Shown here piece after piece: positions 61,121-61,153 of a DNA stretch of 64,000 nucleotides; position 1 is the first letter of the stretch; every line of letters starts with the position of its first letter. Under the pieces are notes generated by a model. It was not told the DNA's origin and did no database searches. It saw only the letters and a list, made by a program, of their open reading frames with translations. The position numbers and the translations under genes are program-made. The stretch lies in NCBI RefSeq assembly GCF_053078305.1, contig NZ_CP166879.1. One strand, written 5' to 3'.

Positions 61121-61153
61121 ATATGCCTGATGGTGTTGCACCATCAGGCATAT
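61121..61153. terminator. 15-bp perfect inverted repeat between convergent tpx and tyrR (bidirectional hairpin, weak T-tract)
   Basis: ATATGCCTGATGGTG-ttg-CACCATCAGGCATAT. Confidence 0.5.

Follow-up and report, generated by a model that had tools for sequence, protein, structure and literature searches.

The palindrome between the convergent genes tpx and tyrR of Escherichia coli is probably the shared 3′-end hairpin of the two transcription units, acting as a leaky two-way terminator that combines pausing or weak termination with a block to exonucleases. This account brings together observations made here or in published data, namely the hairpin, its conservation, RNA 3′ ends on both strands, a Rho-dependent site and antisense double-stranded RNA (dsRNA). 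In the proposed mechanism, transcription from either side would give the same 16-bp stem, and polymerase release at the hairpin would be incomplete because the flanking A/U tracts are poor. Polymerases that escape on the tpx strand would be halted by Rho about 450 nt further on, within antisense tyrR, and read-through on the tyrR strand is probably the source of antisense RNA over tpx, although Huang et al. 2020 weigh other sources too. If the general model of such hairpins applies, read-through RNA would be trimmed by 3′ exonucleases back to the hairpin, which would protect both mRNAs. The steady-state tpx and tyrR RNAs end 2-3 nt past the stem. Direct termination, the collision of polymerases and trimming that follows Rho termination would each account for a share of the 3′ ends.

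The features on which the analysis draws are the following, in coordinates of the window, by which we mean the whole 64-kb stretch of DNA that was analysed.

60610..61116, + strand: tpx (thiol peroxidase) coding sequence; its stop codon TAA, 61114-61116, lies 3 nt before the 16-bp stem
61160..62701, - strand: tyrR coding sequence, 513 aa; its stop codon, 61160-61162, lies 5 nt from the 16-bp stem
61120..61154: perfect inverted repeat of 16 bp with arms 61120-61135 and 61139-61154; either strand gives the same RNA hairpin
61125..61149: GC-containing core GCCTGATGGTG-TTG-CACCATCAGGC, corresponding to the element labelled REP114
61117..61156, both strands: region common to both mRNA 3′ ends in K-12 SEnd-seq (NC_000913.3 1388265-1388304), from row 110 of a published table and coordinate mapping
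61115, + strand: strongest tpx-strand Term-seq 3′ end in all three conditions, K-12 1388306(-), from Adams et al. 2021
61155..61214, + strand: C-rich, G-poor 60 nt (20 C, 8 G) right after the hairpin on the tpx strand, with a composition typical of Rho loading regions
61563, + strand: bicyclomycin-sensitive (Rho-dependent) stop of tpx-strand read-through, K-12 1387858(-), from Adams et al. 2021, with coordinates mapped here

A perfect 16-bp hairpin fills the gap between tpx and tyrR

A 301-nt query from the locus was 100% identical to E. coli strain XJ6.1 and 99% identical to K-12, where tyrR ends at 1388261 and tpx occupies 1388305-1388811 (NC_000913.3). An earlier, sequence-only reading of this DNA had called tpx and tyrR as convergent genes, and these calls were correct. 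The gap between the genes is 43 nt long (61117-61159) and is filled by the hairpin. The tyrR gene is weakly expressed, and the two genes probably differ greatly in their level of expression.

The 15-bp repeat ATATGCCTGATGGTG-TTG-CACCATCAGGCATAT that the same reading had described was found at 61121-61153, beginning at the fifth nucleotide past the tpx stop and ending at the seventh nucleotide before the tyrR stop, in agreement with the spacing given there. The repeat gains one more pair, A61120-T61154, which makes a perfect 16-bp stem with the 3-nt loop TTG. The hairpin had been described as very stable, and a fold-energy calculation bore this out with a ΔG of -25.8 kcal/mol on each strand. 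When compared to dinucleotide shuffles, the RNA fold had z-scores of -7.1 and -8.9 on the two strands, and 0/200 shuffles were as stable. The palindrome was also the longest perfect inverted repeat in the 64-kb window when loops of 3-8 nt were allowed. After dinucleotide-preserving shuffling of the window, the longest arm had a mean of 9.3 and a maximum of 14, and an arm of 16 was reached in 0/100 shuffles. The hairpin is real and far from random. In a published genome-wide survey, E. coli was found to be poor in perfect repeats of at least 13 bp with short spacers, and a search of the 64-kb window for further copies of the palindrome found none.

The stable GC-containing stem-loop of an intrinsic terminator is present, with 16 bp, 7 G-C pairs and the folding energy given above. 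A U-rich tract of about 7-8 nt directly 3′ of the stem is absent; U makes up 3/8 nt past the last G-C pair on each strand (AUAUUCGC and AUAUUAAC), as the earlier remark on the lack of a strong U-tract had anticipated. In the SEnd-seq-derived Table 16 of bioRxiv 10.64898/2026.03.23.713779, the entry for this hairpin gives its flanks as 3 U and 2 A. A simple scan for sigma-70 promoter and terminator patterns did not call the hairpin as a terminator. When Rfam was searched at a permissive threshold only chance matches were obtained, the hairpin reaching 17 bits against a miRNA model with a gathering score of 90. A mechanical open reading frame of 62 aa, at 61123-61311 (+) and antisense to tyrR, has its ATG within the left hairpin arm; it showed no sign of being a gene.

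The hairpin is fixed in E. coli and its position is conserved across genera

The hairpin is essentially fixed in E. coli. A BLAST search found it in 5381 of 5426 complete genomes, and among 5406 E. coli records the perfect 35-nt form was present in 4682 and a form with one mismatch in 721. Within Escherichia, variation affected only the A-U foot and the apex (GGTG/CACC to GGTA/CACC or GGTG/CGCC), while the 11-bp part ATGCCTGATGG/CCATCAGGCAT of the hairpin core was invariant. Covariation within the genus is uninformative because 9/16 stem pairs never vary.

In E. coli strain AST85 (NZ_AP043644.1, locus L002, 419-2461) the place of the hairpin is taken by a 2043-bp gene that has terminators of its own on either side and encodes a hypothetical protein of 680 aa, for which no match was found in Pfam, PADLOC or NCBIfam. 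Insertion alleles of this type were seen in <1% of E. coli genomes. In AST85, tpx is followed by a canonical terminator of its own and another hairpin lies ahead of the tyrR stop, an arrangement that fits a need for one 3′ hairpin per message.

For a comparison between genera, 80 Enterobacteriaceae loci were collected with Tpx as the query and both stop codons were located in each. The convergent order of tpx and tyrR was conserved, and the gap was usually 35-65 nt long with exactly one hairpin. Among the 57 non-Escherichia species with a short gap, the GC core of the hairpin had a median length of 6 bp and was followed by a median of 6/8 T on each strand, with at least 5 T on both sides in 41/57. 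Judged by its sequence, the gap in these species contains a two-way intrinsic terminator of the canonical kind, such as AAAAAGCCTCC-nnnn-GGAGGCTTTTT. In Citrobacter, Enterobacter, Leclercia and Kosakonia this bidirectional terminator occupies the same place between the same two stop codons as the E. coli hairpin, and there too a single hairpin serves both strands. In contrast, the Escherichia gap carries ATGCCTGATGG...CCATCAGGCAT with a GC core of 10-11 bp and only 2-5 A or T in the 8 flanking positions (3 and 3 in E. coli). The E. coli core is thus 11 bp long compared to about 6 bp in the other genera, and its tails contain 3/8 T compared to about 6/8 per side. The position of the hairpin is therefore conserved between genera, but its sequence is not. 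Since the Citrobacter version, AAAAATGCCTCC...GGAGGCATTTTT, has ATGCCT and AGGCATTTT in common with the Escherichia hairpin, the latter may have grown in place from the ancestral terminator.

The gap has also received other sequences. Inserts of 0.7-1.5 kb were seen in several species of Citrobacter, Enterobacter, Lelliottia and Raoultella, and bona fide repetitive extragenic palindromes (REPs) with CTAC or GTAG occupy the gap in other species (loci L019, L027, L036 and L073). The loci listed for gap inserts and/or REPs are L010, L028, L029, L031, L034, L036, L038, L057 and L079, and these sequences suggest that the gap is a hot spot for insertion. An E. coli plasmid of 98 kb, pJNE112863 (NZ_AP045073.1, L088 301-333), has a diverged tpx and, after it, the same palindrome foot; the apex and loop of this palindrome are in the opposite orientation (GATGATGCAACACCATC), and it adjoins a transposase of the IS481 family.

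In SEnd-seq, both RNAs end just past the hairpin

The tpx-tyrR hairpin is already known, under the name REP114 and also as a two-way terminator whose RNA ends have been mapped. The supplement of bioRxiv 10.64898/2026.03.23.713779 contains a Table 16 that derives, by its own account, from Supplementary Table 4 of Ju et al. 2019, who used SEnd-seq. Row 110 of Table 16 is an overlapping site of bidirectional termination at NC_000913.3 1388265-1388304. The row gives the sequence as GCGAAUAUGCCUGAUGGUGCAACACCAUCAGGCAUAUUAAA, with a ΔG of -25.8, a stem of 16 and a loop of 3, and assigns the site to 'gene_convergent_transcription', the gap region and log phase, with the genes ycjG:tpx:mpaA:tyrR. It also carries the added label REP114, for which the REP positions were taken from EcoCyc.

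When the K-12 SEnd-seq coordinates of this row were mapped onto the window, the tyrR RNA (...GGCAUAUUAAA) ended at 61117, 3 nt beyond the stem, and the tpx RNA (...GGCAUAUUCG) ended at 61156, 2 nt beyond the stem. By these tabulated coordinates, both ends are 7-8 nt beyond the last G-C pair. The opposed RNA 3′ ends, as listed, overlap across the predicted hairpin, which is what characterizes the class of Ju et al. 2019, and the 43-nt gap lies between two convergent genes, as for the other overlapping bidirectional terminators of that study. The bidirectional sites of Ju et al. 2019 and Wang et al. 2022 have in common with the tpx-tyrR hairpin the convergent setting, the overlapping 3′ ends over one hairpin and the poor A/U tracts, and row 110 is the tpx-tyrR site itself. 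No difference in kind from this class was seen; the stem of 16 bp (-25.8 kcal/mol) is longer than those in adjacent table rows (8-13 bp). Neither tpx nor tyrR is mentioned in the TERMITe supplements.

The sequence-only reading had held that transcript 3′ ends well beyond the hairpin on both strands would speak against its proposals. The SEnd-seq ends in the table do not lie there, although read-through also occurs. Two of its suggestions, a bidirectional terminator and an RNA-stability hairpin, agree with tabulated ends 2-3 nt past the stem, with the reservation that the site is not a clean terminator; the third, a protein-binding palindrome, found no support.

Published data indicate read-through on both strands

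Published data indicate that the hairpin leaks in both directions. On the tpx strand, termination that depends on Rho is recorded in supplementary file 2 of Adams et al. 2021 at 1387858(-), with a Rho score of 19.1; this point lies inside tyrR in antisense orientation, about 450 nt beyond the hairpin. The reads upstream/downstream of this point were 293/9 without bicyclomycin and 225/132 with the drug. A bicyclomycin-sensitive stop at this distance downstream implies that polymerases on the tpx strand pass the hairpin and are then stopped by Rho. Judging from its composition, the C-rich stretch 61155..61214 (+) is a candidate Rho loading region. REP114 does not appear in the table of REPs near rut sites in bioRxiv 10.64898/2026.03.23.713779, and that screen thus gives no support to Rho loading directly downstream of the hairpin.

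On the tyrR strand, the evidence comes from dsRNA. Huang et al. 2020 reported RNase III-cut dsRNA over the whole tpx coding sequence (cluster S-116, seventh among the coding clusters), and this dsRNA was also found by Lybecker et al. The published p19-capture and dsRNA pull-down experiments show abundant sense/antisense dsRNA across 60610-61116 on both strands. Huang et al. 2020 consider several candidate sources of the antisense RNA, among them read-through from tyrR, or the tyrR-ycjG read-through transcript that Conway et al. annotated. A scan for the sigma-70 consensus pattern found no antisense promoter near the hairpin on the tyrR strand. The genes tyrR and ycjG are on the same strand and flank tpx, a layout that resembles a non-contiguous operon or an excludon.

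A leaky hairpin of this kind has precedents. Dar and Sorek 2018 showed that RNAs terminated by Rho are trimmed back to protected ends, which are marked by U-poor hairpins, and they predicted intermediates between the two termination modes. Their combination of a hairpin without a U-tract and bicyclomycin-sensitive termination downstream was found here on the tpx strand only. The stem-loops that protect the 3′ ends of transcripts terminated by Rho (Peters et al. 2012; Dar and Sorek 2018) are, like the tpx-tyrR hairpin, stable and without a U-tract, and the steady-state end lies just past them. Further points of likeness on the tpx strand are the bicyclomycin-sensitive stop downstream and the bias of C over G past the hairpin. 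Unlike those stem-loops, the tpx-tyrR hairpin serves two opposed genes, and its role as a barrier at which PNPase or RNase II would stop trimming is a predicted one.

The hairpin might instead do no more than pause the polymerase, with release requiring a head-on collision together with a trailing polymerase, as in the collision-driven bidirectional terminator of Ju 2019 and Wang 2022. We regard this as possible but rather unlikely; it is compatible with the leaky-hairpin account and does not exclude it. According to its table entry, the tpx-tyrR site belongs to the SEnd-seq class for which the collision model was put forward, a class described as unlike intrinsic terminators and Rho-independent. 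Wang et al. 2022 found that SEnd-seq bidirectional sites were weak one-way terminators in vitro and served as pause or positioning elements for polymerase collisions; at one member of the class, ynaJ-uspE, one-way transcription released 9-39% of the polymerases and the hairpin determined where they collided. However, there is a strong Rho-dependent stop downstream on the tpx strand, of which the collision model has no need. Furthermore, opposing polymerases would be rare for the tpx direction, given the weak expression of tyrR mentioned above and the absence of any called tyrR-strand 3′ end alongside a very strong tpx peak in the data of Adams et al.

The same observations bear on whether the hairpin is an efficient classical intrinsic (Rho-independent) terminator in both directions, in which the long stem would offset the poor U-tract. 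The stem is strong, the RNA ends tabulated from SEnd-seq are 7-8 nt past the last G-C pair on both strands, the peak at the stop codon had a Rho score of 0.80 and was called 'No' (Adams et al. 2021, file 3), and the orthologous hairpin is a canonical intrinsic terminator in other genera. Nevertheless, efficient intrinsic termination is unlikely. Only 3/8 nt are U on each side and the pattern scan did not call the site. On the tpx strand, transcripts read through to a Rho-dependent stop, and tpx is covered by antisense RNA, one proposed origin of which is read-through from tyrR.

A strong 3′ end lies within the tpx stop codon

The strongest tpx-strand Term-seq end counts against the leaky-hairpin model, as it lies at the stop codon, upstream of the hairpin, and the dominant species is thus not the predicted one. 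This end, 1388306(-), is the second nucleotide of the tpx stop codon and lies 5 nt upstream of the stem; it is the sole tpx-strand peak reported by Adams et al. 2021, and is very strong, with values of 463168 and 165722 in two rows. The layout of the sequence column in that data set (50+1+10) was checked here on three ordinary terminators. The end was not Rho-dependent (score 0.80), and its intrinsic-terminator score was 1.66 against a threshold of 3. The pipeline of Adams et al. 2021 retained only the strongest peak within 100 bp, so that there may also be an end past the hairpin.

A mapping or library artefact was considered for 1388306(-), but no mechanism was found by which BWA-MEM or a ligation before fragmentation could produce it. 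A real in vivo end made by RNase E or RNase III is favoured because adapter ligation needs a 3′-OH and precedes fragmentation. The end could be a nuclease cut that gives a non-stop tpx RNA.

The palindrome as a whole might then be a processing signal, at which a cut by RNase III or RNase E at the hairpin foot would remove the hairpin, leave tpx mRNA that ends within the stop codon and thereby tune Tpx. The K-12 sequence A↓AUUU fits most of the preference of RNase E, which reportedly is RN↓WUU, but the window strain has a G in place of the +2 U. The dominant Term-seq end was at the second nucleotide of the stop codon in three conditions and was neither Rho-dependent nor terminator-like, and the edge of the S-116 dsRNA cluster, converted to current coordinates with a +1976 offset, is 5 nt away from it. 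On the other hand, the end comes from one data set and one peak-picking rule, and the SEnd-seq table places the tpx end past the hairpin. Taken together, a processing signal seems improbable. An extended form of this reading, to which we give little credence, is an excludon-like module in which tyrR read-through RNA, antisense over tpx and running towards ycjG, would pair with the tpx mRNA, and RNase III or RNase E would cut the hairpin foot to produce abundant non-stop tpx RNA.

The hairpin lacks the hallmarks of E. coli REPs

The label REP114 raises the question whether the hairpin is a functional REP, i.e. a member of a mobile family recognised by a RAYT (TnpAREP) and with roles at the DNA level such as the binding of gyrase, HU or Pol I. 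According to Ton-Hoang et al., REPs of E. coli are imperfect palindromes of 30-40 nt, with a conserved GTAG beside the foot and a two-base mismatch in the stem, and fall into three types (y, z1 and z2); binding of TnpAREP needs both the GTAG and the mismatch.

The tpx-tyrR element resembles these palindromic units in being extragenic, in lying between convergent genes and in its foot. This foot, TGCCTGATG...CATCAGGCA, agrees with that of z-type REPs and with the cleavage motif TGCC↓TGAT. As noted above, bona fide REPs occupy the same gap in some other species. A curated database annotation is also present, since the element carries the label REP114 in Table 16 of bioRxiv 10.64898/2026.03.23.713779, a table built, by its own account, from EcoCyc REP coordinates. 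The RefSeq K-12 record has no REP features anywhere, even at a canonical REP.

However, neither strand of the tpx-tyrR element has the GTAG/CTAC tetranucleotide (the + strand flanks are ...GTTAATAT and ATATTCGC), and the stem is perfect, without the internal mismatch (GATGCG...CTTATC) that TnpAREP requires. There was also no match to the y, z1 or z2 consensus. An nhmmer profile was made from 38 unique of 45 canonical REPs found in 314 kb of E. coli DNA, consisting of the window and five K-12 segments. All 45 reference REPs have GTAG/CTAC by way of selection, and their signature is TGCCKGATGCG...CTTATCMGGCCTAC. The scores against this profile were:

tpx-tyrR hairpin, foot only: 4.0-4.8 bits
training REPs, median: 44 bits
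held-out REP at window position 38112: 33.8 bits
degenerate REPs without CTAC: 15-22 bits

Thus, the hairpin matched the profile at its foot only, and its interior was unrelated to that of E. coli REPs. It also differs from them in not being dispersed, as BLAST against 5426 E. coli genomes found one locus per genome, foot-only matches being below the sensitivity of the search; the two 'places' per genome in the BLAST output are the two strands of one palindrome. Finally, the foot is derivable from the ancestral terminator ATGCCTCC...GGAGGCAT of Citrobacter, and a REP origin is weakened because 4/7 foot bases (GCCT) were already present in that terminator. With no GTAG/CTAC, a perfect stem, a low profile score and a single copy, the hairpin was rejected as a functional REP despite its label, and we consider such a function very unlikely.

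A palindrome pair in the dbpA-ttcA gap of the window (38075-38144) consists of a canonical REP (GCCGGATGCGACGCTGGCCGCGTCTTATCCGGC) and GCCCGATGCGCAAGCGTATCGGGC. This REP served as the held-out positive control of the profile (33.8 bits), and the dbpA-ttcA REP is also listed as a SEnd-seq bidirectional site, in row 113 of the table.

It is hardly credible that the palindrome is instead a DNA site bound by a dimeric regulator, as an operator or a roadblock: its dyad symmetry is perfect and a roadblock might conceivably give rise to the Term-seq end found 5 nt upstream, but no known motif matches it (the TyrR box is TGTAAA-N6-TTTACA), its outer and apex positions vary in Escherichia with pairing kept, or lost only at the apex, and other genera keep a hairpin at the same position with an unrelated sequence, which indicates an RNA structure rather than a DNA site.

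Implications

As an object, the tpx-tyrR hairpin is nothing new, being present in EcoCyc as REP114 and in the SEnd-seq catalogue, and its value is as a worked example. As the case of REP114 shows, similarity of the foot alone can be the basis on which a database names an element a REP. If the excludon-like reading were true, the leakiness of the hairpin would be a control point, and transcription of the TyrR regulon would tune the peroxidase Tpx. In the leaky-hairpin account that we prefer, one genus has exchanged the canonical two-way intrinsic terminator of most Enterobacteriaceae for a hairpin that is longer, poor in U and supplemented by Rho, and the tpx-tyrR locus would be a kind of transition state between termination modes, as foreseen by Dar and Sorek.
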